A DNA stretch of 64,000 nt from an uncultured Dehalococcoides sp. (GTDB lineage Bacteria > Chloroflexota > Dehalococcoidia > UBA2979): positions 23,628 to 87,627 of the forward strand of contig CAZVNJ010000004.1 in assembly GCA_964628985.1 (NCBI GenBank), in the 5' to 3' direction. Positions 1 through 58,088 of this stretch are shown here, piece by piece (the stretch's first letter is position 1; the number at the start of each line of letters is the position of its first letter). The translations under genes were made by a program, and so were the position numbers. A model generated the notes under the pieces. The model saw only the letters and a list, made by a program, of their open reading frames with translations, had not been told where the DNA came from and ran no database searches.

Positions 1-543
1 GCGGAAGCGCGGGCCCTCGGTGTAAATCACGGGCAACTTCGGGCGGCCGGTGCGGATGTACCACGGGCCGGCCTGTTCGGTCGCCGCCGCGATCACGGCC
101 TCCGCCTCGACGACGTCCGATGGCACCACGACCGTGAAGTTCACCAGCGAGGAGAAGAGCGCGAAGTCTTCCACGGACTGGGCGGAGGCGCCGTCTTCGC
201 CAGTCGAGACGCCGCCGTGCGAGGCGACCACCTTCACATTCAGCCGCGGCTGTGCCACGGACATCCGTAGTTGGTCGAACGCGTGCTCCGCGAAGACCGC
301 GAAGGTGGTGGCGAACACAGTGCTGCCGAGGGTGGCGAGACCCGCCGCCGCGGAGACCATGTTCTGCTCGGCCACTCCGAAGGTGAAGAAGCGGTCCGGG
401 TACGCATCCTTGAACGCCCGTGCCGAGGTGGACTTTCCGAGGTCAGCGTCCACCACCACGATGTCTGCGCCGGCCTGCTGCAGGCGGATGAGGGCGGGGC
501 CCAGGGCCTCGCGCGTCGCGGCGGGTGCGGGGGCGATGGTCAT
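1..543 (-). CDS. Transketolase C-terminal-section subunit; only the N-terminal ~180 aa lie in the window, and the gene runs past the window start
   Basis: Minus-strand frame from ATG at 543 reads MTIAPAPAATREALGPALIRLQQAGADIVVVDADLGKSTS..FGVAEQNMVSAAAGLA. ATGA start/stop overlap with the upstream subunit gene. Confidence 0.85.
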   Translation of the reverse strand, partial: MTIAPAPAATREALGPALIRLQQAGADIVVVDADLGKSTSARAFKDAYPDRFFTFGVAEQNMVSAAAGLATLGSTVFATTFAVFAEHAFDQLRMSVAQPRLNVKVVASHGGVSTGEDGASAQSVEDFALFSSLVNFTVVVPSDVVEAEAVIAAATEQAGPWYIRTGRPKLPVIYTEGPRFR

Positions 544-1379
544 CGTGCCGCCTCCGGGTCCGCGAGTTCGACCATCGCCTGGGCATACTGCTCGTCCGAC
601 GGTGGCGCGCCGTGGAAGTTCGGGTTGTTCTCCATGAAGGAGACTCCCTTCCCCTTCACGGTGTCGAAGATCACGCAGGCAGGCTTGCCGCGGACTGACG
701 TCGCCCAGCGCAGGGCCTCATCGATCGCCTCGAAGTTGTGTCCGTCGATGCCGGCGCGCACTTCCCAGCCAAAGGCTCGGTACTTCTCGTCGAGCGGCTC
801 GGTGCGCATCGTATTCACGGTGAAGTCGTCGTTCTGGATGCCGTTGCGGTCGATGATCGCGATGAGCCCGTCGATCTCGTGGTGCGCGGCTGCCATCGCG
901 GCCTCCCACACCTGGCCTTCGTCCTGTTCGCCGTCTCCCATCAGCACGAAGACGCGGTTGTCCATGCCGCGCAGGCGCATGCCGAGGCGGATGCCGAGGC
1001 CGAACGAGAGCCCCATGCCGAGCGCACCTGCGGAGTTCTCGACGCCACCCGGCTTGCCGAGCACAGAGTGCCCCTGCAGGCGACCGCCCTTGCGGCGGAA
1101 GGTTGCGAGTTCCTCGACGGGGAAGTAGCCGGATTCTGCGAGGATGGCGTACTGGGCTGGCGTGCAGTGGCCCTTGCTCATGATGAAGCGATCCCGCCCA
1201 GGCCATGCTGGATCTTCAGGATGATGTCGCATGAAGCGCGTGTACAACACGGCCATGATGTCGATCGCGGACATCGAGCCGCCGATGTGGCCCGACTTGG
1301 CGCTGTACACCATGTCGACGATGTGCCGGCGGAGACGCCGAGTGAGCGTCCCCAGTTCGGTCGAAGTTGAGGTGACCAT
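540..1379 (-). CDS. Transketolase N-terminal-section (TPP-binding) subunit
   Basis: 279-aa ORF with SGHIGGSMS, MSKGH and LMGDGEQDEGQVWEA motifs typical of a split transketolase. Confidence 0.9.
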   Translation of the reverse strand: MVTSTSTELGTLTRRLRRHIVDMVYSAKSGHIGGSMSAIDIMAVLYTRFMRHHPEDPAWPGRDRFIMSKGHCTPAQYAILAESGYFPVEELATFRRKGGRLQGHSVLGKPGGVENSAGALGMGLSFGLGIRLGMRLRGMDNRVFVLMGDGEQDEGQVWEAAMAAAHHEIDGLIAIIDRNGIQNDDFTVNTMRTEPLDEKYRAFGWEVRAGIDGHNFEAIDEALRWATSVRGKPACVIFDTVKGKGVSFMENNPNFHGAPPSDEQYAQAMVELADPEAAR

Positions 1380-1496
1380 CGGAATCCCGCCCCCCGGTTG
1401 GCGATCAAGCCGAGTATATGGAGGGAGGCAAAACCGGTCGAATCCGCGCCGAATCTCGAGATGCTGCTATGACGAGGCGGTATGGGTTCCTGAAGG

Positions 1497-1679
1497 CTAT
1501 GCGGAGCAGGCCGAGAAGCCGCAGATTGGGCAGAGGCTGCATCCCTCGCCGAAGACCAACGGTCCCGCGCAGTGAGGGCAGCGAGGGCCCATCGCGGGAC
1601 GGGCGCGGCGGATCCGGCGCCCGGTATGAGTCGTCGAGACCGCGACTGAGCTGGCCAACGCAGAATGGTTGAGAGTCAT
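1497..1679 (-). CDS. 60-aa Cys-rich microprotein (putative zinc ribbon), SOS-box controlled
   Basis: ORF MTLNHS..CPHCAGPLVFGEGCSLCPICGFSACSA. GAGGTGAT Shine-Dalgarno 5 nt before the ATG, with a near-consensus promoter and two LexA-type boxes upstream. No family recognised. Confidence 0.5.
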   Translation of the reverse strand: MTLNHSALASSVAVSTTHTGRRIRRARPAMGPRCPHCAGPLVFGEGCSLCPICGFSACSA

Positions 1680-1713
1680 CGGATCACCTCAGATGTGTGG
1701 GCACCCGGCCTGC

Positions 1714-1725
1714 GAACACCCGTTC
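1714..1725 (-). promoter_or_regulatory. LexA/SOS box (GAACacccGTTC), promoter-proximal operator
   Basis: Perfect GAAC-N4-GTTC palindrome about 9 nt downstream of the predicted -10 element and 35 nt upstream of ATG 1679. Confidence 0.6.
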
Positions 1726-1733
1726 TGCAACCG

Positions 1734-1763
1734 AGGTTAGATAAGAACAAGCGTTCTTGTCAA
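1734..1763 (-). promoter_or_regulatory. Sigma-70-type promoter TTGACA-N18-TAACCT
   Basis: Minus strand reads TTGACAagaacgcttgttcttatcTAACCT. It has a consensus -35 and a TAnnnT -10. Confidence 0.5.
1745..1756 (-). promoter_or_regulatory. LexA/SOS box (GAACaagcGTTC), operator inside the promoter spacer
   Basis: Perfect palindrome AAGAACaagcGTTCTT lying between the -35 and -10 elements. Confidence 0.6.
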
Positions 1764-4209: not shown

Positions 4210-4271
4210 CACGACCTCCACGCGTGCAGACTCGGCTGCCCGCCGCGCTACGATGCGGCCCGGAGGCCCTC

Positions 4272-4460
4272 GTGTCCAACGCGATCCGGACGATCCTCAG
4301 CGCCGTGTTCGTCGTGGGCCTCGGCTACGGCGCATACCTGTATTTCCTGCGTCCCGCGCAATTCCGTCGATGGCGCGGGAGGTTGATGCTCGTCGGCTAC
4401 GCGTATGTCATATCGATCCTGATCTCCGCCGCGATCCGCCTGCTGGGCTGGGGCACCTGA
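4272..4460 (+). CDS. Small membrane protein (62 aa, 2 TM)
   Basis: GTG at 4272 after GGAGG. Sequence VSNAIRTILSAVFVVGLGYGAYLYF..MLVGYAYVISILISAAIRLLGWGT. The upstream part of the 117-aa ORF is Arg/Pro-rich and unlikely to be coding. Confidence 0.5.
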   Translation: MSNAIRTILSAVFVVGLGYGAYLYFLRPAQFRRWRGRLMLVGYAYVISILISAAIRLLGWGT

Positions 4461-4474
4461 GCGGAGGCTCCGTC

Positions 4475-5611
4475 GTGCGCATCCTTGTCGCCCCGCAGGA
4501 GTTCAAGGGATCGCTGACGGCTGCGCAGGCCGCCACGACGATCGCGCGCGGCCTGCGGCTGGGAGGACGCGGGGCGGGTGTCCCGATCGAGATTGACCTG
4601 CTGCCGTTTGCTGATGGCGGACCGGGCACGGCGGCGATCGTCTCGCAGGTGCTGGGGGGGCGCGCCGTCAGCGTGACGGTGCCTGGGCCGCTTGGGACCT
4701 CCGTCGAGGCTGAGTACGCCCTCGTCCCCGGCGCCGGCGACGCCAGCCGCTCCCTGGCAGTCATCGACAGTGCGGCCGCGTGTGGTCTGGTACTCGTGCC
4801 GGAAGCCGCCCGTGACCCGCTGCGCGGGTCCAGTGCCGGCGTCGGCGCACTCGTCCTCGACGCCGTCCAACGAGGGGCGCGACGCGTGGTGCTTGGCGTG
4901 GGCGGCACGGCCACCAACGACGGTGGGGCCGGCGTGGCGCAGGCGCTCGGGCTGCGTCTGCTGGACGCGGCGGGTGACTCGCTCCCGGCCGGCGCAACTC
5001 ACCTTGCACGGCTGGCGCGGGTTCAGCGCGGCGCACCGTTGCCTCCTCTGGAGCTGCGGATTGCCGTGGATGTCCGCAATCCGCTGCTCGGCCCGGAGGG
5101 CGCGACTGCCGTGTACGGGGCGCAGAAGGGCGTGCGGGACTGGCAGGCGCCCGCGCTCGAAGGGGCACTGGCGCGGTGGGCGGAACGGCTGCGCCTGGAC
5201 CTCGGCCTCGATCTGGCCTCCGTCGCCGGGGCTGGTGCCGGGGGCGGCCTCCCCTGTGGCCTCCTGGCGGCGGTTCCAGGCGCCAGCATCGAACCTGGCG
5301 CCGCGCTCGTCGGAGAGGTGGTGGGGCTCCGGGCGCGCATCGAGGCGTGCGATCTCGTAGTCACAGGGGAAGGGACGCTGGACGCCCAGACTGCATACGG
5401 CAAGGCGGTTGCGCATGTCGCCGCCGTTGCCTCCGAGTCCGGCCGTCCCTGCCTGGCGGTTGCCGGCCAGATTGAGGCGCGTCCGGCCTCGGTCGCGGAC
5501 GCGGAGGCGGCGACACCCGACCGCGCCGCCCGTGAAGCGACGCGGGACGACCCAGGCCCCACGGTGGAAGCTGCGGCAGCCCGGCTGATTCGGCGGTGGC
5601 TCGCCCGCTGA
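4475..5611 (+). CDS. Glycerate kinase
   Basis: VRILVAPQEFKGSLTAAQAA start typical of the glycerate kinase family, then GGTATNDGGAG and TGEGTLDAQTAYGK motifs. GTG 4475 is preceded by GGAGG. Confidence 0.8.
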   Translation: MRILVAPQEFKGSLTAAQAATTIARGLRLGGRGAGVPIEIDLLPFADGGPGTAAIVSQVLGGRAVSVTVPGPLGTSVEAEYALVPGAGDASRSLAVIDSAAACGLVLVPEAARDPLRGSSAGVGALVLDAVQRGARRVVLGVGGTATNDGGAGVAQALGLRLLDAAGDSLPAGATHLARLARVQRGAPLPPLELRIAVDVRNPLLGPEGATAVYGAQKGVRDWQAPALEGALARWAERLRLDLGLDLASVAGAGAGGGLPCGLLAAVPGASIEPGAALVGEVVGLRARIEACDLVVTGEGTLDAQTAYGKAVAHVAAVASESGRPCLAVAGQIEARPASVADAEAATPDRAAREATRDDPGPTVEAAAARLIRRWLAR

Positions 5612-19344: not shown

Positions 19345-20064
19345 ATGCGATTCGCAAGAGGGATGCTCGTGGCGGCCGCTTGCGTCTCGGTCCTGGCGCT
19401 GGCGGGATGTTCCAGCGGCGATGACGAGACCAAGAAGCAGGTCGAGGAACTCACCAAGCAGGTCGAGGCGCTGAACAAGGCCGTCATCATCGACGCCAAC
19501 GGCACCGCCCGTCTTGCAACACCAACTCCAGTGCCGATCGCGGAGTACAAGGACTTTGGCTTCGGCCTTCCTGTGCCGTCCAACGTCAAGCTCACCGCGA
19601 CCGGATTGAGCGGTAAGGACGCATCGCTTGATGGTGGGAGCGTGCTCGCCTCCTCCGGTGGCACAAGCCTCCTGCTCGTCTGGAATAAGGTCACGCCGCC
19701 CCTCTCTTCGCAGGAGTCCGTGGTGGGCGCGTTCAACGTCTTGCAGTCGCTCACGCAGGCGAAGTTCGAGGCGATGGGTGCGGGACAAGGCCTCACCGTA
19801 GACAACCAGCCGGGCTCGTACGGAACCTTCGTCACGCGGGATGCACGCGGCACCATCGACGGGGTCGGCATCATCGGTGGCTGGGTCTGCCCGAATGACA
19901 AGCGGTCATACGCCATCACCGTGACCGGCAAGGAACTCGATCCCGTGCAGCAGTCCTTCGTCTATCTCACCAACGGCTTCCGCTGTGAGGCGGGGAAGAC
20001 ACAGGCCGCGCCGGCCTCAACCCCGACACCGAGACCGACGGCGACGACGACCCCGCGCCCGTAG
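19345..20064 (+). CDS. Lipoprotein of unknown function
   Basis: MRFARGMLVAAACVSVLALAGCSSGDD lipobox (LAGC) and a C-terminal Pro/Thr-rich tail. Confidence 0.7.
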   Translation: MRFARGMLVAAACVSVLALAGCSSGDDETKKQVEELTKQVEALNKAVIIDANGTARLATPTPVPIAEYKDFGFGLPVPSNVKLTATGLSGKDASLDGGSVLASSGGTSLLLVWNKVTPPLSSQESVVGAFNVLQSLTQAKFEAMGAGQGLTVDNQPGSYGTFVTRDARGTIDGVGIIGGWVCPNDKRSYAITVTGKELDPVQQSFVYLTNGFRCEAGKTQAAPASTPTPRPTATTTPRP

Positions 20065-20119
20065 CGGCCGGTCACGATCAGGATCGCGGGCCCGCGGGCC
20101 CGATGAAAGAGGCACGTCG

Positions 20120-22795
20120 ATGAATCGACTACGTCTCCGAGCACACACCAGGCGACGGCTTTGGCGCGCGGCGCTCGCATGTGGCATCGCGACGATCATG
20201 GCCGGCTACACGGGATCCATCCTCACCTACGCGCAGGTCCCGCCGCCCCCACCGCCAGACGGTGGTGGGCTGCCTCCACCTCCGCCCCCGCCCGATGGTG
20301 GTGGCCTGCTTCCGCCTCCGCCTCCGCCTCCCGATGGTGGTGGTCTGCTTCCACCCCCGCCTCCGCCTCCCGATGGTGGTGGGTTCCCGCCACCCCCCGG
20401 CGGCGTGCTCCCTCCACCTCCCGGTGGAGAGTTTGGGCCACCCCCTCCGGGTGGTGGATTCCCGCCGCCTCCGGGTGGTGGATTCCCACCGCCTCCGGGT
20501 GGTGAGTTCGGACAGCCTCCCCCCGGCGGGCAGCCGGGCGCCCCACCTCCTGGCGGAGCCTTTGGCCCCCCTCCGGGGGGTGCATTCCCTCCGCCACCGG
20601 GCGGCGGCGCTCCTCCGGTCGGACAGCCCGGCGGTCTTCCCCCGGGTGGGAACTTTGGTCCGCCTCCTCCCGGTGGGCAGCCGGGCGGCCCGCCTCCGGG
20701 TGGGAACTTTGGTCCGCCCCCTCCCGGTGGGCAGCCGGGTGGCCCGCCTCCGGGTGGGAACTTTGGTCCGCCTCCTCCCGGTGGGCAGCCGGGAGGCCCG
20801 CCTCCAGGTGGGAACTTCGGCCCTCCGCCCCCGGGTGGCCAGCCCGGTGGTCCGCCGCCTCCGGGGGGGCAACCCGGAGGGCAGGCGCCGCCGCCCTTTA
20901 ACCCGAACAACCTGACTCAGGGTCCGAATAACAACCTCAACTTCTTCGGTGCTCCCCCGCAAGGTGGTCAGCCCGGCGGGCCACCACCGCCTGGCGGAGT
21001 TCCCGGAGGATTTGGGGCGCTCTTCGGTGCGGGTCCAGGAGCACCCGGTCAGCCGGGTGGGCAGCCGGGGCAGCCCGGTGGGGAGTTCCGCGGGTTCTTT
21101 GCGCCTCCTCCGGGCGGTGTTCCTGGCGGCGCGCCCAACCAGCCCGGCGGGCAACCCGGTCAACCCGGTGGTCAACCGGGCGGGCCGCCGCCCGCAGGAT
21201 CCGGCGGGCTCTTCAGCATCTTCACTCCCGGCGGTCCGCCGCCGGGCGGTGGATCGCCGGGTCAACCTGGCGGCCCCAACCCCCAGGGCGGTCCGCCGTC
21301 AGGCGGCCAACCGGGCGCTCCAGGTGGTGACGCGAGGGCGTTCTTCTTCGGCGGCGGTGCCCCATTCCCGGGTGCGCCCGGTACGCCCGGAACGCCCGGT
21401 GCTCCGGGTGGCCAGCCCCTGGGCGGTGGTCCAAACAGCGGTATCAACTTCTTCAGCGGCTCTGGTCCAGCCGGGCCGGGCGGAGCTCCGCCTGCAGGCG
21501 GGGCTCCCGGCGCTCCGAACGCTCCGGGCCAACCGTTCGCCGGCCTCCTCGGGTTCCCGCCGGCGGGTACCCCTGGAGCTCCCGGTGCGCCGGGCGGCCC
21601 TGCCGCGGGCGAACCTCGAGGATTCTTCGGGGCACCCCCGCCAGGTGGCCAGGGCGGCCCAGGAGGGCCCGGTGGCGCCCCAGGCGGCCCGGCCGGCGGT
21701 CCACCGGCTGGTGCGCCGGGTGGCGGTCTGTTCGCCCTCTTCGGTCCCGGCCCAGGCGGCGCTCCTCCCGGTGCTCCTGGTCCCGGTGCTCCTGGGCCGG
21801 GCGGTGCCGGTGGCCCGGGTGCGCCGGGTGCGCCGGGTGGTCAGCCGGGCCAGCCCGGACAGGCGGGTGGCGATGCCCGTGCGTTCTTCTTCAATGGAGG
21901 GGCACCCCAGCCGGGCGGTTCCGCCGGGCCTCCGTCTGGTGGACCGCCGCCACTTGGCAGCGGTCCGAATACGGGTCTCAACTTCTTTGGTGTTTCGCTC
22001 GCCGGTGGCCCACCGCCGGCGGGCGCGCCAGGAGCGCCGGGCGGCCTACCGCCAGCCTTCGCAGGTCTCTTCGGCCCGCCGGGTACTCCCGGGGTGCCGG
22101 GTGGTGCAGCAGGCGGGCCTCCGGCTGGGACGCCGGGTACGCCCGGTACGCCCGGCGGCGCGGGCAATGCTCCAACGGGCCCAGCGGGCGCTCTTCGAGG
22201 CTTCCTACCACCACCTCCGGGCGGAACGCCTGGTGGTGGTGCGCCCGGCGCACCGGGCGGTGGTGCACCCGGTGGTGGTGCGCCAGGTGGTGGTTCGCCA
22301 GGTGGTGGTTCGCCAGGTGGTGGTTCGCCAGGTGGAGCGCCAGGTGGTGGCCAGGGACTCTTCGCCCTCTTCACGCCGGGTGGCGGCACGCCGCCCCCGG
22401 GCGGGGCTCCTCCGGCTGGTGTGCCTGGTTCGACTGGTCCGGTGGACGCGAGGGCCTTCTTCTTCGGCGGGCCACCAGGCGGTGCTCCGGGGACGCCCCC
22501 TCCAGGGGCCGGTCCGGGCGCACCAGGAGGTGCACCAGGAGGTGCACCCGGTGGGCCGCCACCTCCCGGCGCACCCCCCGCCGGTGGCGGATTCTTCGCC
22601 GGGACAGACGTGGCGCCACCACCAGGGGGTGCCGCTCCAGGTGTCCCGGGTGGACCTCCTGCGGGTGCCCCACCAGCCGGCGGTGGATTCTTTGCCGGGA
22701 CCGATGCTGCTCCGGCGGGCGGTCCTGCGGGAACGCCGCCCCCGGGCGGTACGCCACTCACGGGAGGCTTCTTCGCAGGGACGAATATTCAATAG
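20120..22795 (+). CDS. 891-aa exported Pro/Gly-rich low-complexity protein with periodic Phe motifs
   Basis: ATG 20120 after AAGAGG. N-terminal MNRLRLRAHTRRRLWRAALACGIATIMAGYTGSILTYA is a signal or anchor, possibly Tat-like. The rest is almost entirely P/G/A/Q with ordered F-containing motifs. Confidence 0.7.
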   Translation: MNRLRLRAHTRRRLWRAALACGIATIMAGYTGSILTYAQVPPPPPPDGGGLPPPPPPPDGGGLLPPPPPPPDGGGLLPPPPPPPDGGGFPPPPGGVLPPPPGGEFGPPPPGGGFPPPPGGGFPPPPGGEFGQPPPGGQPGAPPPGGAFGPPPGGAFPPPPGGGAPPVGQPGGLPPGGNFGPPPPGGQPGGPPPGGNFGPPPPGGQPGGPPPGGNFGPPPPGGQPGGPPPGGNFGPPPPGGQPGGPPPPGGQPGGQAPPPFNPNNLTQGPNNNLNFFGAPPQGGQPGGPPPPGGVPGGFGALFGAGPGAPGQPGGQPGQPGGEFRGFFAPPPGGVPGGAPNQPGGQPGQPGGQPGGPPPAGSGGLFSIFTPGGPPPGGGSPGQPGGPNPQGGPPSGGQPGAPGGDARAFFFGGGAPFPGAPGTPGTPGAPGGQPLGGGPNSGINFFSGSGPAGPGGAPPAGGAPGAPNAPGQPFAGLLGFPPAGTPGAPGAPGGPAAGEPRGFFGAPPPGGQGGPGGPGGAPGGPAGGPPAGAPGGGLFALFGPGPGGAPPGAPGPGAPGPGGAGGPGAPGAPGGQPGQPGQAGGDARAFFFNGGAPQPGGSAGPPSGGPPPLGSGPNTGLNFFGVSLAGGPPPAGAPGAPGGLPPAFAGLFGPPGTPGVPGGAAGGPPAGTPGTPGTPGGAGNAPTGPAGALRGFLPPPPGGTPGGGAPGAPGGGAPGGGAPGGGSPGGGSPGGGSPGGAPGGGQGLFALFTPGGGTPPPGGAPPAGVPGSTGPVDARAFFFGGPPGGAPGTPPPGAGPGAPGGAPGGAPGGPPPPGAPPAGGGFFAGTDVAPPPGGAAPGVPGGPPAGAPPAGGGFFAGTDAAPAGGPAGTPPPGGTPLTGGFFAGTNIQ
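20240..20386 (+). repeat. Tandem repeat of ~33-39 bp x4 encoding PPPPPPPDGGGL(L)
   Basis: Read directly from the sequence, for example ccgcctccgcctccgcctcccgatggtggtggtctgctt. Confidence 0.9.
20642..20857 (+). repeat. Tandem repeat of 54 bp x4 encoding PGGNFGPPPPGGQPGGPP
   Basis: Units start at 20642, 20696, 20750 and 20804 and are nearly identical at the DNA level. Confidence 0.95.
22256..22330 (+). repeat. Tandem repeat of 15 bp x5 encoding GGG(A/S)P
   Basis: ggtggtggttcgcca occurs x3, preceded by two Ala variants. Confidence 0.9.
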
Positions 22796-23024
22796 CGAGG
22801 TCGGGTCACCTCAAGTCGCTGCCTCCAGGGAGGGCGCCTCGCAAGAGGCGCTCTCTCTGTATGTTGGGTCGAGACTGTTGGCTCGAACGTCGCGGGTTTG
22901 CCATTCGCTGGGACGACGCACCGCTTCTCCGTCTTTCGCCTCGGCGAGTCGACGGCGTCATGTTGTGTGGAGAGAATGAAGCGCAGATGGTCGGGGCTCC
23001 GCCTGCGACCACGTGAGGAGCAAG

Positions 23025-24509: not shown

Positions 24510-24790
24510 CGCGGTGGCGTCCTGTTCGCGTCCGCAGAGACGCTCTCACGACTCGAACCGGATGAGCGAGCGCGGGGCGATCGCAGCCGCCCGTCACCTC
24601 CCGCCTTCGAGCTGGGGTCGATGCCCGAGGGCGCTCGCTTCCTGACATTTCCTGCCACTGTCCGTCCCTGAGGCAGAGTGGCCGGCTGCCCCCTGCACGC
24701 TCGGCGGCCTCGTGCGCTACGCTCCCGACCGCCCGGATCGAGGCGCCTGATAGCCCTCGAGTTCGCGCCGCAAGCCACTTGCGGGCATCA

Positions 24791-24802
24791 GAACAAGTGT
24801 TC
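24791..24802 (+). promoter_or_regulatory. LexA/SOS box GAACaagtGTTC ahead of the phage-like packaging operon
   Basis: Perfect palindrome AGAACaagtGTTCT lying in the spacer of a TTGCGG-N18-TACTCT candidate promoter, 34 nt before ATG 24836. Confidence 0.6.
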
Positions 24803-24835
24803 TACTCTCCCTCTCCCAACGAGAGGGGGCAGGCA

Positions 24836-25129
24836 ATGGACACTGGCTGGGGCGACCTCTGGCACGGACTTGGCATCGCCCAGCAGGCAGCGCTCCTCGG
24901 CGGCGCCGTTGCCAACTCGGCCTACTTCGTCCATCGCGCGCTGATCGAGCGGGGCGCGGTCCGCCTCGCAGCCGCCGTCCTCGGCGGCCTCTTTGGCGGC
25001 GTGGCCCTGGAGGCCACCGCGCGCCTCGAGCACGCGGGAAGCACCGCCGAGATTGTCCGGCGTGCCCCACTGCTCGCCGCCACCCTTGTCGCCTTCGCCC
25101 TCGTCGCGCTCCCGCGAGGTGCGCGATGA
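24836..25129 (+). CDS. Small membrane protein (holin-like by position and topology only)
   Basis: 97 aa with 2-3 hydrophobic segments and a GAGAGGGGG Shine-Dalgarno. It is the first gene of a translationally coupled string. Confidence 0.5.
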   Translation: MDTGWGDLWHGLGIAQQAALLGGAVANSAYFVHRALIERGAVRLAAAVLGGLFGGVALEATARLEHAGSTAEIVRRAPLLAATLVAFALVALPRGAR

Positions 25130-25287
25130 GCGCCGGGATGCTCGCCGCTGACATCGAGGCTGGCCGCTACGAGATCGCCGCGCTGCGGCTCATCTCCGGA
25201 TTCCTGATCGCGCTGCGTGAAAGTGCTCCGCCGGCCCGCGAGGCCTTGCTCACGCTCCTGACGCGAGAAGACGGTGGCCAGGCATGA
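25126..25287 (+). CDS. Hypothetical 53-aa protein
   Basis: Below the ORF-track cutoff. Read by hand as MSAGMLAADIEAGRYEIAALRLISGFLIALRESAPPAREALLTLLTREDGGQA, with ATGA overlaps at both ends. Confidence 0.4.
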   Translation: MSAGMLAADIEAGRYEIAALRLISGFLIALRESAPPAREALLTLLTREDGGQA

Positions 25288-25598
25288 CCGACGGCAGCAC
25301 CTTCTACGACCGTGCACTCGACGCTGCGGACCGCGACGCGGTTGATGCCGCGCGTGGCGTCCACGGGATCGACGACGAAGTAGCGCTGCTGCGGGTCCAG
25401 GTACGGCGACTACTTGAGGCCGGGAACCCGGATCCGAAGGTGCTGCAGTCTGGTATCCGGTTGCTGATCCAGGCCCTCGCTGCCCAGCATCGCTTGAGCG
25501 GCGCACAGGCGGAGGGCGTCGAAAGCGCCGCCGCCGCCGCCATCGAGCAGTTCGCGGCGCTCATGCATCCTCTCGACACGACAGGCGATGCCGCGTGA
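25284..25598 (+). CDS. Hypothetical phage-module protein (104 aa)
   Basis: In-string coupled ORF. It is helical with a DEVALLRVQVRRLLE segment, and a small-terminase role cannot be shown. Confidence 0.45.
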   Translation: MTDGSTFYDRALDAADRDAVDAARGVHGIDDEVALLRVQVRRLLEAGNPDPKVLQSGIRLLIQALAAQHRLSGAQAEGVESAAAAAIEQFAALMHPLDTTGDAA

Positions 25599-25834
25599 AC
25601 CGCGCCCACCACAACACGGGGCGGCTCGCGGAGGCGCTCCGCGTGCTCTCGCGCGCCCGTCGTGCCGCGCCGATCGCCGCCCACGCGGCGCCCCCGACGC
25701 TGCTCGAGGTCGGCCTGCGTCTCGCCTCGCTTGAGCGGGAGGTCGCTGAGGTGCGCTCGCGCGTGAACGGTGTGCTGTTCGCCGTCGTCGCCTCCGTCCT
25801 CGCCCAACTCGCGACGAAGGTGGTGGTGGGATGA
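25595..25834 (+). CDS. Hypothetical protein with a C-terminal TM helix (79 aa)
   Basis: GTGA overlap upstream and ATGA overlap downstream, with C-terminal VNGVLFAVVASVLAQLATKVVVG. Confidence 0.45.
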   Translation: MNRAHHNTGRLAEALRVLSRARRAAPIAAHAAPPTLLEVGLRLASLEREVAEVRSRVNGVLFAVVASVLAQLATKVVVG

Positions 25835-27222
25835 GCCTTCCCATGCTGCGCCCGTACCAGGCTGAGATCGCACGGGCGATCCTCGGACGCGTCGCTGCCC
25901 GCAGCGGTGGCTCGCTCTCCATCGAAGTGGCGCGACAGGGCGGTAAGAACGAAACCTCCGCTCAGGTTGAACTGCTCACGCTGACCGCGCATTCCGGCGC
26001 TGGCGGAGCGCTCGTGAAGTGCGCGCCCACGCTACAACCGCAGGCACTCATCTCCCTCGACCGGCTGGAGTCCCGAGCACGCGGGGCCGGCCTCGGCCGG
26101 TCTGTGCGGCGCTCCGGGACCACCGTGCGTTGCGGGCGAGCCGTCGCTCACTTTCTCTCCGCGGAGCGCGGCGCCAACGTCGTCGGTCACACTGCTGACC
26201 TGTTGCTCGAGGTGGACGAGGCGCAGGACGTCGACCCGGAGAAGTTCGACCGCGACTTCCGGCCGATGGCGGCTGCCTCGGACGCGCCCGTCGTCTACTA
26301 CGGCACTCCGTGGGGATCGCGATCGCTGCTCGCGCAGGCGAGGGCCCACCACGTCGCGCTCGAGCGTCGAGGTGGCGGGCAGCGGCATTTCCGCGTGGAC
26401 TGGGAACAAGTGGCGGGGAGCCACCCGCCGTATCGACGCTACGTGGAGGCGGAGCGTGACCGCCTCGGTGAGCGGCACCCGCTCTTCCGCACGCAGTACC
26501 TCCTCGAGGAAGTCGCCGACGCGGGCCGGCTGTTCGACGCCGCCACCCTGGCTCAGATCGAGGGTGACCACGACCGCCTGAGCGCGCCGCGCGACGGCGA
26601 CCGCTACGTCGCAGGCCTCGACCTCGCCGGGCCCGCGCTCGATGGGCGTGCAAGGCCTGAGCGTGACTGGACCGTGCTCACCATTGCCCGCGTGCTTCGC
26701 GCGCAGACGCTGGACGGCCGCGGCCTGCCCTCGATCGAGGTAGTGGAGCACCAGGCGTGGCAGGGCGCGGCGACCGAGCCGCTCCTGCAGACCCTCGCGG
26801 ACCGGCTGCGTCGCGTCTGGCGCATCGTCCGTGTCGCCGTCGACGCGACGGGCCTCGGGGCGCCGGTTGCGGACCTGCTGGCGAATGCCCTCGGACGGGG
26901 CGTGGTGGATCCCGTGGTGTTCACGGGCGAGCGCAAGAGCCGGCTCGGGTACGCGCTGCTGGCCGCGGTGCACGCGGGCCGGCTGCGCCTCTACCGCCCG
27001 GACGGTAGCCCGGAGCACGTGTCGTGCCGATCGCAACTCGCGCTGGCGCGCGCGGCCTACGGCTCAAGCCACGCCATGCAGTTCGACGTCGACCCCGCCG
27101 AGGGGCACGACGACTACCTGATGAGCCTCGCACTCGCGGTGCACGCCGCGGGTGTGGACGGCGGACCGCGCGTCGCACGCGGCCGCACGACGGATGGTGC
27201 GACAGATGGGGGTGTCCAGTGA
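25831..27222 (+). CDS. Phage terminase large subunit
   Basis: Walker-A-like ARQGGKNETS and Walker-B LLLEVDEAQDV. Nuclease-domain acidic blocks VAGLDLAG..DWTVLTIA, VAVDATGLG and HDDYLMSLALA. Confidence 0.8.
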   Translation: MSLPMLRPYQAEIARAILGRVAARSGGSLSIEVARQGGKNETSAQVELLTLTAHSGAGGALVKCAPTLQPQALISLDRLESRARGAGLGRSVRRSGTTVRCGRAVAHFLSAERGANVVGHTADLLLEVDEAQDVDPEKFDRDFRPMAAASDAPVVYYGTPWGSRSLLAQARAHHVALERRGGGQRHFRVDWEQVAGSHPPYRRYVEAERDRLGERHPLFRTQYLLEEVADAGRLFDAATLAQIEGDHDRLSAPRDGDRYVAGLDLAGPALDGRARPERDWTVLTIARVLRAQTLDGRGLPSIEVVEHQAWQGAATEPLLQTLADRLRRVWRIVRVAVDATGLGAPVADLLANALGRGVVDPVVFTGERKSRLGYALLAAVHAGRLRLYRPDGSPEHVSCRSQLALARAAYGSSHAMQFDVDPAEGHDDYLMSLALAVHAAGVDGGPRVARGRTTDGATDGGVQ

Positions 27223-27689
27223 CCGACATGACCGACATGACTGACAGGACAGACGTCGCGACGTACGAGGGCTCAGTCGACGTCCTCGACGGGGTCTCGG
27301 GTGGCGGGGGCTACAGCGGTGGGAGTGTCTTCGCGCTCCCGGTCATGACGGCGGCCGCCGTCTATGCACGCCGCCACGGCCAGGTGCGGAGTGACGCGCT
27401 CCCCGAGCACATCGAGTACCGCGACGAAGGCTGCGACCTGTTCGCGTCCTGCCTGACCTGCCCGCTTCCCCGCTGCCGGTACGACGAGCCGGGCGGCGTG
27501 CGCGCCATGCTGAACCGCGAGCGCGATCACCAGATCCGTGCGTTGCGCGAGGACCCCAGCCTCTCCGTGGACGACATCGCGGACCGCTTCGGTGTCTCAC
27601 GCCGCACCGTCTTCCGCGCGCTCGAGGGCCACGTGACCCGTTGTGGCGCCCGCCCCGAGGCTGGGCGCGAGGGGAAGAGGAGCGCCTGA
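27219..27689 (+). CDS. Cys-cluster plus helix-turn-helix protein (156 aa)
   Basis: CDLFASCLTCPLPRC cluster followed by LSVDDIADRFGVSRRTVFRALEG, an HTH. GTGA and TGATG overlaps link it to terminase and portal. Confidence 0.6.
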   Translation: MTDMTDMTDRTDVATYEGSVDVLDGVSGGGGYSGGSVFALPVMTAAAVYARRHGQVRSDALPEHIEYRDEGCDLFASCLTCPLPRCRYDEPGGVRAMLNRERDHQIRALREDPSLSVDDIADRFGVSRRTVFRALEGHVTRCGARPEAGREGKRSA

Positions 27690-37165: not shown

Positions 37166-38281
37166 CTACTCCTCGATTGCTTCGTCGGCGAAGAAGGAGG
37201 CCTGCGCGCTCCGGGTGGTCGCCGTGTGCGCGTCGATGCCGAGGTGCTCGTAGCCGAGGCGCGTCAGGATGCGTCCGCGCGGCGTGCGCTGGATGAAGCC
37301 GATCTTCAGGAGGTACGGCTCGTACACGTCCATGATCGTGTCGCCCTCCTCCGAGATCGCGGCGGCGAGGGTTTCGAGGCCGGCGGGGCCGCCTCCGAAG
37401 CGCTCGGCGAGCGCCGTCATCAGATCACGGTCCATCTGGTCCAGGCCGAGGTCGTCGATCTGCATGCGTCCGAGCGCGGCGGCGGCAACCTCGCCGGTGA
37501 TCACGCCGTCGGCGCGCACCTCAGCGTAGTCGCGCACGCGCCGCAGCAGGCGGTTGGCGACGCGCGCGGTGCCGCGTGAACGGCGGGCGATCCCCGCAAC
37601 GCCATCGGGCGTGATGCGGCAGGCGAGGACGTCCGCGGAGCGATTGATGATCTGCGTCAGCGCCGCTTCGTCGTAGAAGTCCATGCGGTACGCCGACCCG
37701 AAGCGGTCGCGCAGTGGCTGCGAAACCAGCGCGAAGCGCGTCGTCGCACCGACGAGCGTGAAGCGGTTGAGTTTCAGGCGCACGTCGCGCGCCTTCGGCC
37801 CCTTGCCCAGGATGATGTCGACGGAGAAGTCCTCCATCGCTGGATAGAGCACCTCCTCCACGGGCAGCGAGAGGCGGTGGATCTCGTCGATGAAGAGCAC
37901 GTCGCCCGGCTGGAGGCTGGTGAGCAGCGAGGCGAGGTCGCCGGCACGCTCGATGGCGGGGCCGCTGGTGATGCGGATGGAGACGCCCATCTCCGCCGCC
38001 ACGATCATGGCGAGCGTGGTTTTGCCGAGGCCGGGGGGCCCGTGAAAGAGGAGATGGTCGAGCGACTCGCCGCGCTGCTTGGCCGCCTCGATGCTGATGC
38101 GCAGGCTCTCCTTGATCCGCTCCTGCCCGAAGTACTGCTCCAGGCGGCGAGGCCGCAGGCTGGTCTCGATTGGTGCCTCGTCATCGGCGGCGACGGGCGA
38201 GAGCGGGCCGGGACGGGCGGCCTCGGGCGCGGGCGGCGTCGAGGGCTGCCGGGCAGGTCGAGGTGCGCGCGGCTCGGGCAT
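37166..38281 (-). CDS. ruvB: Holliday junction branch migration helicase RuvB
   Basis: [36 protein letters not shown] and GATTR motifs, with a ~35-aa Pro/Ala N-terminal extension. No ruvA is adjacent. Confidence 0.95.
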
Positions 38282-38303
38282 GCGCGGAGTATAGCGGCGC
38301 TGC

Positions 38304-38315
38304 GAACGGACGTTC
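38304..38315 (-). promoter_or_regulatory. LexA/SOS box GAACggacGTTC upstream of ruvB
   Basis: Perfect palindrome CGAACggacGTTCG 23 nt upstream of the ruvB ATG. ruvB is a classical SOS gene, so this calibrates the motif. Confidence 0.7.
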
Positions 38316-43531: not shown

Positions 43532-45298
43532 ATGAATCAGACGTCTGAACGGGCGCGGAATGTCGCTGAGTCGATTGATGCAGCGGTTCAGCAGTACTGC
43601 GAAGAGCGTGAGGCCTTTGACACCAGCACGAAAGGCGATGGCTTTGCGATCTGGTGTCTGACCGACGTCTTCGGGTTCGAACGAGATGACGCCATCGATG
43701 CCCTTACGGGTGCCAAGGGCGATCACTCCATGGATGCGATTGCTGACGACGGCAACCGGCTGATCGTGCTCCAAGCGAAGTATCACTCCCACGACTGGGC
43801 GGAAGTCACGAAGTTTCAGACGGACGCCCGGAGCGTAGGTGCGGGTACCGCGAGGCTGCCGCAGGCCCTCCGAGCACCCGCGACAAAAATTCGCGCTCGG
43901 CAGGAGAGCGGCCTGCCAATCGAGTACTTCTACATCACGAATGACCGGTTCACCGGCGATGACGTTGTGAAGATCTCTAACTTGGGGGACGAGCCGGAGC
44001 TTAGCGTCCTCGATCTGGACGGGATTTGCGATCTGCTGTTTGAGCGCGAATCTCAGCGCCCGGTGAATGTTCCCGCGCAGCCTGTGGTCCTGCATCCTCG
44101 GATCTCACCGCTTCAGTTCGGTGATTCGTTGGTCTTCCCCGTACCCCTCAGGGAGTTCAGCCGGTTCGTGTCCGAGGATGGCAAGGATCGTTGGCTCTTC
44201 AATAGCAATGTCCGTCAGTACCTCTCGCGATCGAAGATTAACGAAGGCATTCGCGAGACCGCGAGAAACTCTCCATCGAGTTTCTGGCGATACAACAACG
44301 GCGTCACGATCGTGGTAGACGAATTCGAAGTCCGAAAGAACAGTCTGGCACTCACCAAACCTCAAATCGTAAACGGCTGTCAGACTTCCCTGGCGCTCGT
44401 CAAGGTCATGGCAGAGATGACCCCTTCAGAGCAAGAGAAGGTCGATGGCGATCTGCTCGTCCGCGTCATCCGGGAGCCTCGCGATGAGGAGCGAGAGCGG
44501 ATCACCCAGTTCACGAACAAGCAGAATGCGGTCAAGGGCAAGGACTTCTACGCCCTGCAGGACTTCCAGAAGCAACTGAAAACCCGCATCGGTCGTCTCG
44601 GGTACTTCTATGAGATCCAGACAGGTAGTTACGACATGCTCTCCCGGTCGGCCAAAGAGGGTCTGCGCGGGGAGTCACGTTTCAGCCACCTCCAGTGGAA
44701 GCGCAAGGATTACCGTGTACCAGCGATTGAGGCTGCGAAGTGTCACGCTGCAGCGTTTCGTTCCAAGGTAGCGGCCTGCTACGCGAACCCCGCTGACTTC
44801 ACTCCGAACGGCGATCTATACGACACAGTGTTTCCGGCGGACTTGCCGCTCGAACCGGAGATGTTCCTGCTTCCCTTCTTGCTGATGAAGCACGCTGAGT
44901 CAGCGTTGGGCTATGGAGCATCTAAAGGAGCAGCGTGGCGGCGGAGAGGGCGTTACGTCTTTGTCTACTCAGCCTTCAAGACGTTGAGGGAGGCGCTGAT
45001 TCAGGCGGATCGTGCGACGGTCGGCGTGGATCTTGGCAACGCCACCGTTCGGGAAGTGTTCGCCGACGAGAGCATCACCCACCTGTTGGTGGGCGTGACC
45101 GAGAAGGTCATGGAGAGCTTCTTTACGGACACTCCCATTCAGAAGTTGATCAATAGCGATATTTTCGCGTTCCTGAAGCGGACTATCGAAGGTGAGGATG
45201 CGACGACCATCCTCGACAGCAAGATTCGGTACCAGCTAACAGACAACGACGACGGTCGGACTCTGGTTGCTGCCCTTAGGGCTGCGTTGCCCGCCTAG
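43532..45298 (+). CDS. AIPR-family abortive-infection protein
   Basis: 588 aa with an N-terminal nuclease-like DAIADDGNRLIVLQAKY block and the central FWRYNNGVTIVVDEF..IVNGCQTS signature of the AIPR family. G+C is visibly lower than the flanks. Confidence 0.75.
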   Translation: MNQTSERARNVAESIDAAVQQYCEEREAFDTSTKGDGFAIWCLTDVFGFERDDAIDALTGAKGDHSMDAIADDGNRLIVLQAKYHSHDWAEVTKFQTDARSVGAGTARLPQALRAPATKIRARQESGLPIEYFYITNDRFTGDDVVKISNLGDEPELSVLDLDGICDLLFERESQRPVNVPAQPVVLHPRISPLQFGDSLVFPVPLREFSRFVSEDGKDRWLFNSNVRQYLSRSKINEGIRETARNSPSSFWRYNNGVTIVVDEFEVRKNSLALTKPQIVNGCQTSLALVKVMAEMTPSEQEKVDGDLLVRVIREPRDEERERITQFTNKQNAVKGKDFYALQDFQKQLKTRIGRLGYFYEIQTGSYDMLSRSAKEGLRGESRFSHLQWKRKDYRVPAIEAAKCHAAAFRSKVAACYANPADFTPNGDLYDTVFPADLPLEPEMFLLPFLLMKHAESALGYGASKGAAWRRRGRYVFVYSAFKTLREALIQADRATVGVDLGNATVREVFADESITHLLVGVTEKVMESFFTDTPIQKLINSDIFAFLKRTIEGEDATTILDSKIRYQLTDNDDGRTLVAALRAALPA

Positions 45299-46251: not shown

Positions 46252-46923
46252 TCAGATCATCCGCTCCTGCAGGCCCGCCGCGATCTTCTGACGCGCGGTG
46301 AGGTGGCCGCGCGCGCTCGTTTCCCGCGCGGGTGCGCCGGCGGGGAAGCCCCGCTCCGTGGGGCGGCGCGCTTCCACTCGCTCTCGCACACGCGCGACCA
46401 TGGTGCGGGCCGCGGCGATCGAGGCGTCGACGTCCTCGATGCTGTCGCCGCGGACGAGTTCCGGCGGCAGGTCGGGCTCGTTGGCGAGGACGGCTTCGCG
46501 GTAGCGGGCGACGGCGGCGCAGGCGAGGCCGCGCTGGCGTTCGAGTTCCTGCTGCGCGGCGGCGAGTGCGGCCTGGAGTCCGCGCGCGCGTTCGACCTCG
46601 ACCTGCCGTTCGGCCTCCCGCTCTTCGTCCCGCGCATCGCGGCCCGCGAGACCCTCGGCGGCGAGGGCTTCGATCTCGGCTTGGACGTCGTCGGGCAGGG
46701 GTTCGCCGTCGGGGTCGACCTCGAAGCCGTCGAGGTCGCCGAGGTGTGCGGCCGGGTCGAGGGCGTCGAAGTCGTCCTCGGGGTCGTCGGCGTCGAGCGG
46801 GTCGCCGAGGTCGTCGTCCGGGTCGTCATCGATGTCGGTGGCGGGCAGGTCGTCGTCGGGGATGGGGTCGAGGGCGTCCTCGAATGCTTCGCGTTCGAGG
46901 ACGTCGGTGAGTATGCGAGCCAT
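46252..46923 (-). CDS. Acidic coiled-coil protein, putative capsid scaffolding protein
   Basis: 223 aa with an Asp/Glu-rich N-terminal half, a helical REAERQVEVERARGLQAALAAAQQELERQ segment and a C-terminal TARQKIAAGL. AGGAGG lies 6 nt before ATG 46923. The call rests on composition and position only. Confidence 0.4.
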   Translation of the reverse strand: MARILTDVLEREAFEDALDPIPDDDLPATDIDDDPDDDLGDPLDADDPEDDFDALDPAAHLGDLDGFEVDPDGEPLPDDVQAEIEALAAEGLAGRDARDEEREAERQVEVERARGLQAALAAAQQELERQRGLACAAVARYREAVLANEPDLPPELVRGDSIEDVDASIAAARTMVARVRERVEARRPTERGFPAGAPARETSARGHLTARQKIAAGLQERMI

Positions 46924-46964
46924 GTGAGCCTCCTCTCGCCCCCGCCGAGGGGCTTGAACGTATA

Positions 46965-46976
46965 GAACACCCGTTC
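46965..46976 (-). promoter_or_regulatory. LexA/SOS box GAACacccGTTC ahead of the scaffold-like gene
   Basis: Perfect 16-bp palindrome TAGAACacccGTTCTA about 40 nt upstream of ATG 46923. Confidence 0.6.
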
Positions 46977-57206: not shown

Positions 57207-57268
57207 GGGGGGTGAGAGTGTCGAAGGGCGGTTGACGAGTTGACAGAACGGGGTTAGCGTTCCGAACA

Positions 57269-57280
57269 GAACATGTGTGC
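57269..57280 (+). promoter_or_regulatory. Imperfect LexA-type box GAACatgtGTGC upstream of lexA
   Basis: One mismatch from GAAC-N4-GTTC. It sits in a patch with further half-sites (GTTCCGAACAGAAC), about 180 nt upstream of the lexA ATG. Confidence 0.35.
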
Positions 57281-57455
57281 CGCACATCTGTATCGGCCAG
57301 CGCGTGGCCCGTGCGATGCGGCGGACATGGGCCTCCGCCTTGAGGCGGGGGCAGGTTGGGCGTGCGGGTGGGGGTAAGGGGACGCGCGGACGCCGGCAAA
57401 GCCGGGCGCCCACCGTGCTGCCGCACGGAGTCGCGACGTGAGAGAGGCGTATGCC

Positions 57456-58088
57456 ATGTCGGACGGATTGTCGGAGAAGCAGCAGGACATCTACCGCTTC
57501 CTGGAGCGGTTCATCGCCGAGCACGACTATCCGCCCAGCATCCGGGACATCCAGCAGGGGTGCGGTATCTCATCCACCAGCGTGGTGGACTACAACCTGA
57601 AGCGCTTGGAGGAGAAGGGGCTGATCCGGCGGGACCGCGAGGTCTCACGGGCGATCGAGCTGCTGAACGGGCAGGGCGAACGCCGACGGCGCACCGTGCA
57701 GGTGCCGCTGCTGGGCCCGATCGCGGCGGGCATCCCGATCCCCACGCACCCGGACAGCGTCGCGCCGCTGGACATCATCGAACTGACCGAGGAGCAGGTG
57801 CGCGGCAAAGCCAACCTCTACGCGCTGCGCGTCCAGGGCACCTCGATGATCGACGCGCTGATCAATGACGGGGACATCGTGGTCCTCGAGCCACGCCAGG
57901 CGGCGGATCCGGGCGAGGTCGTGGCCGCATGGATCGTGGACCGGGGGGAGACGACGCTCAAGAAGTACTTCCCCGAGGGGCGGAAGGTCCGGCTGCAACC
58001 GATGAACGCGACGATGGCCCCCATTATGGAGGACGCGTCGAACGTGCAGGTGCAGGGGCGGCTCGTCGCCACCATCCGCTCCTTCTAA
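57456..58088 (+). CDS. lexA: LexA repressor
   Basis: LSEKQQDIYRFLERFIAEHDYPPSIRDIQ winged-helix N-terminus. AAG cleavage site (GPIAAGIPI) and GTSMIDALINDGDIVV..TLKKY Ser/Lys protease motifs. Confidence 0.95.
   Translation: MSDGLSEKQQDIYRFLERFIAEHDYPPSIRDIQQGCGISSTSVVDYNLKRLEEKGLIRRDREVSRAIELLNGQGERRRRTVQVPLLGPIAAGIPIPTHPDSVAPLDIIELTEEQVRGKANLYALRVQGTSMIDALINDGDIVVLEPRQAADPGEVVAAWIVDRGETTLKKYFPEGRKVRLQPMNATMAPIMEDASNVQVQGRLVATIRSF

Follow-up and report, generated by a model that had tools for sequence, protein, structure and literature searches.

We analysed a 64,000-nucleotide stretch of DNA from an uncultured Dehalococcoides sp. (contig CAZVNJ010000004.1, positions 23,628 to 87,627), hereafter the window, and focused on a microgene near its start that sits behind a promoter with two LexA-type operators. 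It encodes a cysteine-rich protein of 60 amino acids whose C-terminal half resembles the C-terminal finger of class II ribonucleotide reductase (RNR), NrdJ. The gene lies on the minus strand (1497..1679, stop codon included) as an open reading frame (ORF) that starts with ATG at 1679-1677 and ends with TAG at 1499-1497. Its translation equals the one given in an initial annotation of the locus, which had been made from the sequence alone.

Read on the minus strand, the promoter begins with a consensus -35 hexamer, TTGACA (1758..1763), and continues through an 18-nt spacer, AGAACGCTTGTTCTTATC (1757-1740), to a -10 hexamer of the TAnnnT type, TAACCT (1734..1739). The initial annotation had called this a near-consensus promoter, a description that suits the -35 hexamer and does not suit the -10 hexamer. 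The latter shares only 3/6 positions with TATAAT, which is why the site was missed by a simple promoter scan, though it fits the TAnnnT pattern of orthologous promoters. A first operator, AGAACGCTTGTTCT (1744..1757), lies inside the spacer and holds a perfect GAAC-N4-GTTC core, GAACGCTTGTTC (1756-1745). A second perfect operator, AGAACGGGTGTTCG (1713..1726), surrounds the likely transcription start; its core, GAACGGGTGTTC (1725-1714), starts 8 nt past the -10 hexamer, in the place described before and slightly closer than the distance then given (about 9 nt). Similarly, the Shine-Dalgarno sequence GAGGTGAT (1683..1690) ends 3 nt from the ATG, and the 5 nt originally reported applies only with GAGGTG taken as its core. 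Perfect GAAC-N4-GTTC sites are rare in the 64-kb window, with 5 observed where 0.63 would be expected, a count not reached in any of 100 shuffles, and all five are located just 5' of ORF starts. Those of the microgene are the sole pair among them (centres 31 bp apart), so that the description of two perfect SOS-type boxes, one in the spacer and one past the -10 hexamer, forming the only two-operator site of the window, agrees with our reading of the sequence.

We compared this arrangement across the 65 loci whose upstream sequence was long enough. All of these orthologous promoters (65/65) have at least one box within a single mismatch of the motif, 55/65 have at least one perfect box, and in 60/65 the first box is joined by another at a distance of 23-39 bp. 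When promoters were aligned on the first box, a near-universal order emerged: TTGAC(T/A), 1-2 nt, box 1, TAnnnT, box 2, GGAGG, ATG. The -10 elements found at the position of TAACCT included TAGACT, TATACT, TAGCCT and TACGTT; box variants with GCAC or GTGC half-sites were frequent, and the sequence between the promoter elements had diverged. Distant subfamilies of the CPDCGGPLVHGEGC type (L081, L082, L086 and L093) have an identical promoter layout, and no boxes were found upstream of a low-GC homologue (L083). This conserved layout makes a strong phylogenetic footprint of what appears to be a two-operator repressed promoter. One subgroup of loci (L059, L062, L064, L065, L067 and L071) carries its two boxes just 23-25 bp apart.

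The repressor acting on the boxes, which are of the Gram-positive/Chloroflexi type, is most likely LexA, which would bind them and release the gene upon DNA damage. The window encodes this presumed repressor itself (57456..58088, plus strand), and the assignment made in the initial annotation was borne out by a match to the TIGR00498 equivalog (170.5 bits, cutoff 111) and by the Pfam domains LexA_DNA_bind and Peptidase_S24. Upstream of lexA, two adjacent imperfect boxes, GAACATGTGTGC and GCACATCTGTAT, occupy 57269-57293, downstream of a TTGACA at 57240. Another perfect box (38304..38315) is found 23 nt upstream of ruvB (37166-38281, minus strand) and overlaps its promoter. ruvB is a canonical SOS gene. 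GAAC-N4-GTTC is reportedly also the LexA motif of Dehalococcoides ethenogenes. The same motif is established as that of LexA in B. subtilis and M. tuberculosis (PMC3323433). Together, the two-box arrangement kept in 60 of the 65 orthologous promoters, the genuine lexA and the boxed ruvB agree with the SOS-type promoter initially proposed. In the region upstream of lexA (57240-57456, plus strand), the boxes are separated from the start codon by a GC-rich leader of unusual length (about 160 nt). In the ruvB promoter (38281-38315, minus strand), the box is followed by a TATACT that ends just 6 nt from the ATG, which suggests a leaderless or near-leaderless mRNA.

When the ORF behind this promoter was used in a protein search, it gave 40 close homologues with lengths of 52-71 amino acids (E down to 2e-21), and the alignment contains 20 invariant columns, including all six cysteines, which are invariant in 41 sequences. 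The family consensus reads GPRCPxCAGPLVFGEGCxxCPxCGxSxC. Scanning one genome per species yielded 109 relatives, 80 of which were taken as loci L001-L080. These are all Chloroflexota/Dehalococcoidia metagenome-assembled genomes (MAGs) with the exception of one labelled Acidobacteria and one labelled "uncultured bacterium". In nearly all relatives the finger belongs to a small ORF that has an ATG 22-38 codons ahead of the finger and stops 1-2 codons past the last cysteine. The 28-codon finger region has a mean proportion of synonymous differences (pS) of 0.49 against a mean proportion of non-synonymous differences (pN) of 0.10, the latter somewhat biased downward because the sequences were picked by motif pattern. 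All 28 third positions vary in this region (28/28), and only 9-10 first or second positions do. The GC content at third codon positions is 0.78 in the microgene frame. The ORF is thus kept in more than 100 genomes with a substitution pattern that argues strongly for a real protein-coding gene under purifying selection. Taking promoter and frame together, we consider it highly probable that the microgene is both protein-coding and subject to LexA-type regulation.

A second profile search gave 332 clusters; those with names all come from Chloroflexota MAGs. Every named relative is likewise a MAG, and a search for a cultured host was negative. Source annotations of the homologues read "hypothetical protein", UPF0148 or Csl4, and one 49-residue homologue is entered as "ribonucleoside-diphosphate reductase alpha chain". 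No curated family covers the microprotein, and searching the literature for zinc-ribbon or RNR-tail proteins under SOS regulation turned up no description of one. The idea of a viral family was discarded after a scan of viral contigs gave a single weak match.

The protein falls into two halves. Residues 1-30 (1590..1679, minus strand) form a Ser/Thr/Ala-rich segment that varies across the alignment except for an Arg-rich patch (RRIRRAR), and AlphaFold2 predicts it to be disordered (predicted local distance difference test, pLDDT, about 50). Residues 31-60 (1500..1589, minus strand) make up a six-cysteine zinc ribbon, GPRCPHCAGPLVFGEGCSLCPICGFSACSA, with the pattern C34-x2-C37-x9-C47-x2-C50-x2-C53-x4-C58 followed by two residues; this half is predicted with pLDDT 86-88 as three short strands and no helix. 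The structure gave little further guidance, as a Foldseek search of the PDB returned only generic zinc ribbons (TFS4, ribosomal proteins, PriA) at E >0.4, and a sequence search of the PDB with the microprotein returned nothing significant. Among generic Pfam zinc-ribbon families (Zn_ribbon_SprT, Auto_anti-p27/UPF0148, IBR), the best score was 14.7 bits against a cutoff of 28.1, and its relatives also fell below the Pfam zinc-ribbon thresholds except for one marginal match to PF06677. In the subgroup with closely spaced boxes mentioned above, the finger is immediately preceded by TQLRLRLFQ, which resembles the beta-clamp motifs QLxLxL and QLxLF. A clamp-binding motif was rejected as a general feature of the family, the subfamily of the window having RRIRRA in this place.

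The tail, which the initial annotation had left unrecognised, can now be matched to the C-terminal six-cysteine finger of class II RNR. Residues 24-59 of the microprotein align with positions 731-759 of the 759-position NCBIfam profile NF006417 (vitamin-B12-dependent RNR; E 3e-7). When the family profile was searched against 1.84 billion representatives, 430 matches were obtained, and the long ones among them (868-1076 amino acids) aligned at their extreme C-terminus, over the last 30-45 residues. These long matches are class II RNRs; each carries the Ribonuc_red_lgC barrel, in several cases along with inteins or a TSCPD domain. Their tails follow the pattern CPxCGxxLxFxEGCxxC(R/P)xCG(Y/F/W)SxC, and an hhalign comparison of the microprotein family with 24 of them gave a probability of 99.3%, an E-value of 2e-20 and 50% identity over 32 columns. 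The similarity covers about 8 non-cysteine positions as well as the two cysteines that are not presumed to bind zinc. We conclude that the finger half is very probably homologous to the NrdJ finger.

Outside the Dehalococcoidia SOS family, in which all six cysteines are retained, stand-alone homologues vary in an informative way. In distant ones (P0055, P0057, P0064, P0073, P0075, P0078, P0086, P0092 and P0102), the third and the sixth cysteine are jointly lost and the four presumed zinc ligands are kept; this joint loss supports a functional pair of Cys3 and Cys6 apart from the zinc site. RNR-tail-type six-cysteine ribbons of 33-38 amino acids are also found in phage-like contigs (L088 2421-2522, L089 836-952), next to an MT-A70 methylase and an endolysin or to DnaA_C and a DNA ligase, with no RNR nearby. 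A search with P0132, the RNR bearing the most similar tail, with its intein removed, returned cyanobacterial and Sericytochromatia relatives and no Dehalococcoidia NrdJ.

Several characterised systems bear on what such a free finger might do. The closest is the finger of the class II RNR itself. In Stackebrandtia nassauensis NrdJd, the six cysteines (Cys920/923/933/936/939/945 of 947 residues) follow essentially the spacing of the microprotein, C-x2-C-x9-C-x2-C-x2-C-x4/5-C, and all six are needed for turnover supported by tris(2-carboxyethyl)phosphine (Loderer et al. 2017, PMC5704485). Four of them are proposed to bind zinc, and Cys933 and Cys945 to relay electrons to the active site, a transfer that can also cross from one subunit to another (PMC5704485). 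NrdJ fingers and the microprotein further have in common a last cysteine close to the C-terminus (0-2 residues away) and the P, G, L, aromatic, E-G and G-aromatic-S positions. In contrast to the cysteine-rich domain (CRD) of class II RNR, the microprotein is a separate chain of 60 residues with neither catalytic barrel nor TSCPD/IscU-like domain, and it is under LexA-type control. A redox module on a gene of its own, used in trans, does have a parallel in NrdJb of the split class II RNR (P. aeruginosa NrdJa and NrdJb), which is much longer and includes a TSCPD/IscU-like domain, whereas the microprotein is a bare finger. NrdJb is encoded beside nrdJa and co-regulated with it; the microgene is unlinked to nrd genes. 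The lack of a TSCPD domain and of linkage to a catalytic subunit sets the microprotein apart from both the CRD and NrdJb.

The other comparisons concern regulation and target. Like SulA, YneA, SosA, SidA, ChiZ, TisB and DinQ, the microprotein is a small product of a LexA-repressed promoter under tight multi-operator control. It differs from them in being a soluble zinc ribbon that includes a redox-type pair of cysteines; Pfam, NCBIfam and AlphaFold2 showed neither a SulA fold nor a LysM domain or transmembrane segment in it. The initial annotation had already set its zinc-ribbon-like tail apart from known small SOS effectors, in keeping with the six-cysteine ribbon and with the absence of any match to an SOS-effector family. 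Small proteins that act on RNR tail or active-site recycling are also known, among them yeast Sml1, which competes with the tail, and NrdH, glutaredoxin and thioredoxin, which reduce it. None of these is LexA-controlled or related to the microprotein in sequence or fold, and the microprotein derives from the tail itself. The regulation of the microgene is ordinary SOS logic, and the new part is the stand-alone NrdJ-type finger.

The usual neighbourhood consists of a divergent glycerate kinase, the microgene and a split transketolase, encoded by tktN and tktC. In the window, tktN (540..1379, minus strand; Pfam Transketolase_N, E 8e-52) codes for the N-terminal subunit and tktC (1..543, minus strand, an open frame from ATG 543 cut by the window start) for the C-terminal one. 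The glycerate kinase (4253-5611) is displaced here by about 2.5 kb from the microgene by a major facilitator superfamily transporter and other genes. tktN is found downstream of the microgene in 48/69 loci, with an orthologous tktC cluster in 47, and the gap between microgene and tktN measures 95-145 nt. Within this gap, a promoter scan detected a promoter of tktN itself, TTCGACC-N17/18-TATACT (1413..1441, minus strand). The element, as TTCGACC-N17/18-cgTATACTCg, is near-invariant about 45-55 nt before the tktN start in some 45 loci from divergent Dehalococcoidia, a tighter conservation than is usual for plain promoters. Some lineages have a 1.3-kb oxidoreductase gene inserted between microgene and tktN. 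In others, scpB or other genes replace the transketolase downstream, and the boxes and the divergent glycerate kinase are kept; the latter stays as upstream neighbour with scpB downstream in L093 (2714-4135) and L090-L092 (2560-4171). Because tktN has its own promoter, the gap accepts insertions and the boxes persist in loci lacking the transketolase, we assign the SOS promoter to the microgene. No terminator is visible in the gap between microgene and tktN, which leaves room for read-through into the transketolase genes. A riboswitch or leader RNA in the gap was considered and dropped after an Rfam scan of 1200-2000 gave no known RNA.

In the reading that we favour, and to which we assign a probability of roughly 45%, the microgene is a tightly LexA-repressed SOS gene whose product is a free NrdJ-type finger acting on class II RNR in trans. 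Two LexA dimers on this sigma-70-type promoter, one over the spacer and one over the transcription start, would block RNA polymerase until DNA damage led to RecA-stimulated self-cleavage of LexA and derepression of the microgene. By analogy with the NrdJ finger, zinc would be held by Cys34, Cys37, Cys50 and Cys53 (Cys1, 2, 4 and 5), leaving Cys47 and Cys58 (Cys3 and Cys6) as a dithiol/disulfide pair near the C-terminus. Most likely, the free finger would then deliver reducing equivalents to the NrdJ active site in trans, with the greatest benefit to Chloroflexi NrdJ paralogues that have neither a CRD nor C-terminal cysteines, and thereby raise the supply of deoxyribonucleoside triphosphates (dNTPs) for repair. 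Judging from homology and regulation, we hold an action on RNR of whatever kind to be slightly better than an even chance; the narrower proposal of a trans reductant or activator, drawn from the same evidence, is more tentative and falls somewhat short of even.

Several observations nonetheless make us prefer a reductant as the mode of action. The residues that would bear the chemistry are strictly conserved, as is the placement of the last cysteine near the terminus; the fused finger passes electrons across subunits; and the module has already split off in nature as NrdJb. Suitable clients also seem to exist, since the cultured Dehalococcoides, Dehalogenimonas and Thermomicrobium have NrdJ paralogues without CRD and without a C-terminal cysteine pair (Table S1 in PMC5704485), and of the class II C-termini that lack a finger, 26% are devoid of cysteine (PMC9669993).

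A number of points weigh against this proposal. Genomic linkage to nrdJ is missing: no RNR catalytic domain was detected in the window (Pfam on large ORFs, tblastn) or within 10 kb of the microgene in the 80 loci (tblastn with seven NrdJ), and in the tblastn searches the microgenes alone were matched, at 55-65% identity over 27-28 residues. The stand-alone ribbons in unrelated or phage-like contexts indicate that the six-cysteine module may serve uses other than RNR. The likeness to known redox tails is also partial, for a Pfam search for TSCPD gave no match in the microprotein, a CRD measures 150-220 amino acids compared with 60 here, and the disordered Arg-rich segment is an addition that NrdJ tails do not have. 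Finally, tight repression by two operators is usual for products whose constitutive synthesis does harm, and it would suit an inhibitor at least equally well.

Such an inhibitor is the first alternative to be weighed. An SOS-induced decoy could take the docking site of the NrdJ tail or form mixed disulfides and thus throttle dNTP synthesis, in the manner of Sml1, for which PMC5704485 cites competition with the C-terminal tail of R1 (its reference 27). Homology to the NrdJ finger serves a decoy as well as it serves a reductant, two operators imply the very tight repression seen with toxic or growth-arresting SOS products, and the Arg-rich segment could bind without any catalysis. Nevertheless, fewer dNTPs during repair would contradict the general rule that RNR activity goes up after damage, and the presumed redox pair Cys3/Cys6 is strictly retained, with Cys6 near the terminus, which suggests chemistry and not binding alone; we regard a decoy as improbable. 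A further alternative keeps the SOS regulation and gives up the enzyme: the protein would share only ancestry or fold with the NrdJ finger and act on another target, whether as a nucleic-acid- or protein-binding zinc ribbon in a replication, division or transcription checkpoint or as a thiol/zinc redox switch. Stand-alone six-cysteine ribbons do occur in many contexts free of RNR, phage replication modules included, the Arg-rich patch before the finger is conserved in the family, the TQLRLRLFQ of one subgroup recalls a beta-clamp motif, in L081 a small ORF whose product has a hydrophobic N-terminal helix comes after the microgene, and Foldseek matched generic zinc ribbons only. Yet the likeness to NrdJ tails, with its non-cysteine positions and its two non-zinc cysteines, goes well past that of a generic ribbon, the clamp-like motif is absent from the subfamily of the window, and no known DNA-binding or division-inhibitor family was matched. 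We consider this alternative unlikely, if still deserving of some weight.

The remaining two alternatives question the gene or its regulator and are both very unlikely. The initial annotation had itself raised the option that the boxes regulate the split transketolase, in which case the small ORF would be a leader or an incidental upstream ORF. The constant order microgene-tktN-tktC on one strand in the 48 of 69 loci and the read-through permitted by a gap devoid of terminator-like sites are in line with it. Against this, strong purifying selection acts on the peptide, which has 20 invariant residues, a conserved promoter serves tktN itself, a 1.3-kb gene separates the two in some lineages, other lineages keep a boxed microgene ahead of scpB or other genes, and Rfam detected no RNA element. 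This option is thus much weakened, and what survives of it is the read-through. Alternatively, the boxes could be bound by a regulator other than LexA, which would place the gene outside the SOS response. The 31-bp distance between box centres recalls tandem NrdR boxes, and the link to RNR had drawn our attention to NrdR as well. The NrdR box consensus is acaCwAtATaTwGtgt and bears no resemblance to the boxes of the microgene. With box sequences unrelated and a spacing that ranges from 23 to 39 bp among orthologues, the NrdR idea was rejected; moreover, the motif is identical to the established LexA box and, within the same window, occurs ahead of ruvB and in imperfect form ahead of lexA.

If the microprotein does serve as a diffusible RNR tail induced by damage, it would be the first redox microprotein under SOS control to re-reduce a class II RNR in trans, a specific claim that we still regard as doubtful. 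If true, it would represent a new class of SOS effector that is neither repair enzyme nor division inhibitor nor toxin, and it would tie LexA directly to deoxyribonucleotide supply in the large and mostly uncultured Dehalococcoidia/Chloroflexota. It would also imply that the class II RNR finger, with its 30 residues and six cysteines, is autonomous and can exist as a free module. In vitro, neither thioredoxin nor glutaredoxin passed electrons to finger-type NrdJ enzymes. The free finger might be the missing physiological electron route for these enzymes, and it would explain how NrdJ paralogues without C-terminal cysteines are recycled, thus offering a handle on both the in vivo reductant of the NrdJ finger and the turnover of the tail-less paralogues. 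Finally, it would define a family of hundreds of proteins of 40-70 amino acids that are now "hypothetical" or misnamed as Csl4, UPF0148 or RNR alpha chain.

The two perfect boxes of the window not discussed so far (24790-24803 and 46965-46976) are likewise directly upstream of ORF starts. The former, AGAACAAGTGTTCT on the plus strand, is located about 35 nt 5' of an ORF (24836-25129). Beyond that ORF come small ORFs and the genes for a terminase large subunit (25831-27222) and an SPP1-type portal (27641-29227). This region (24790-29227, plus strand) looks like a prophage-like or gene-transfer-agent-like cluster, possibly under SOS control. The latter box belongs to a minus-strand unit (46255-46976) in which it is followed by a -10-like TATACG, GAGGAGG and an ATG at 46922 that opens a 221-residue protein. 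This protein has no match in Pfam, NCBIfam or PHROG, and its gene is a candidate second uncharacterised SOS gene. In L081 (1072-1493), the boxed microgene is followed after 17 nt by the 71-residue ORF with the hydrophobic N-terminal helix, which is apparently in one operon with it and may encode a small membrane SOS effector. Elsewhere in the window, Pro/Gly-rich tandem repeats with periods of 39, 24 and 54 nt (up to 4.6 copies, 88% match) occupy 20243-20856 within a long ORF (19985-22795 or 20949-22979) of no Pfam family, and a gene for an AIPR (abortive-infection phage-resistance) protein lies at 43532-45298 on the plus strand.

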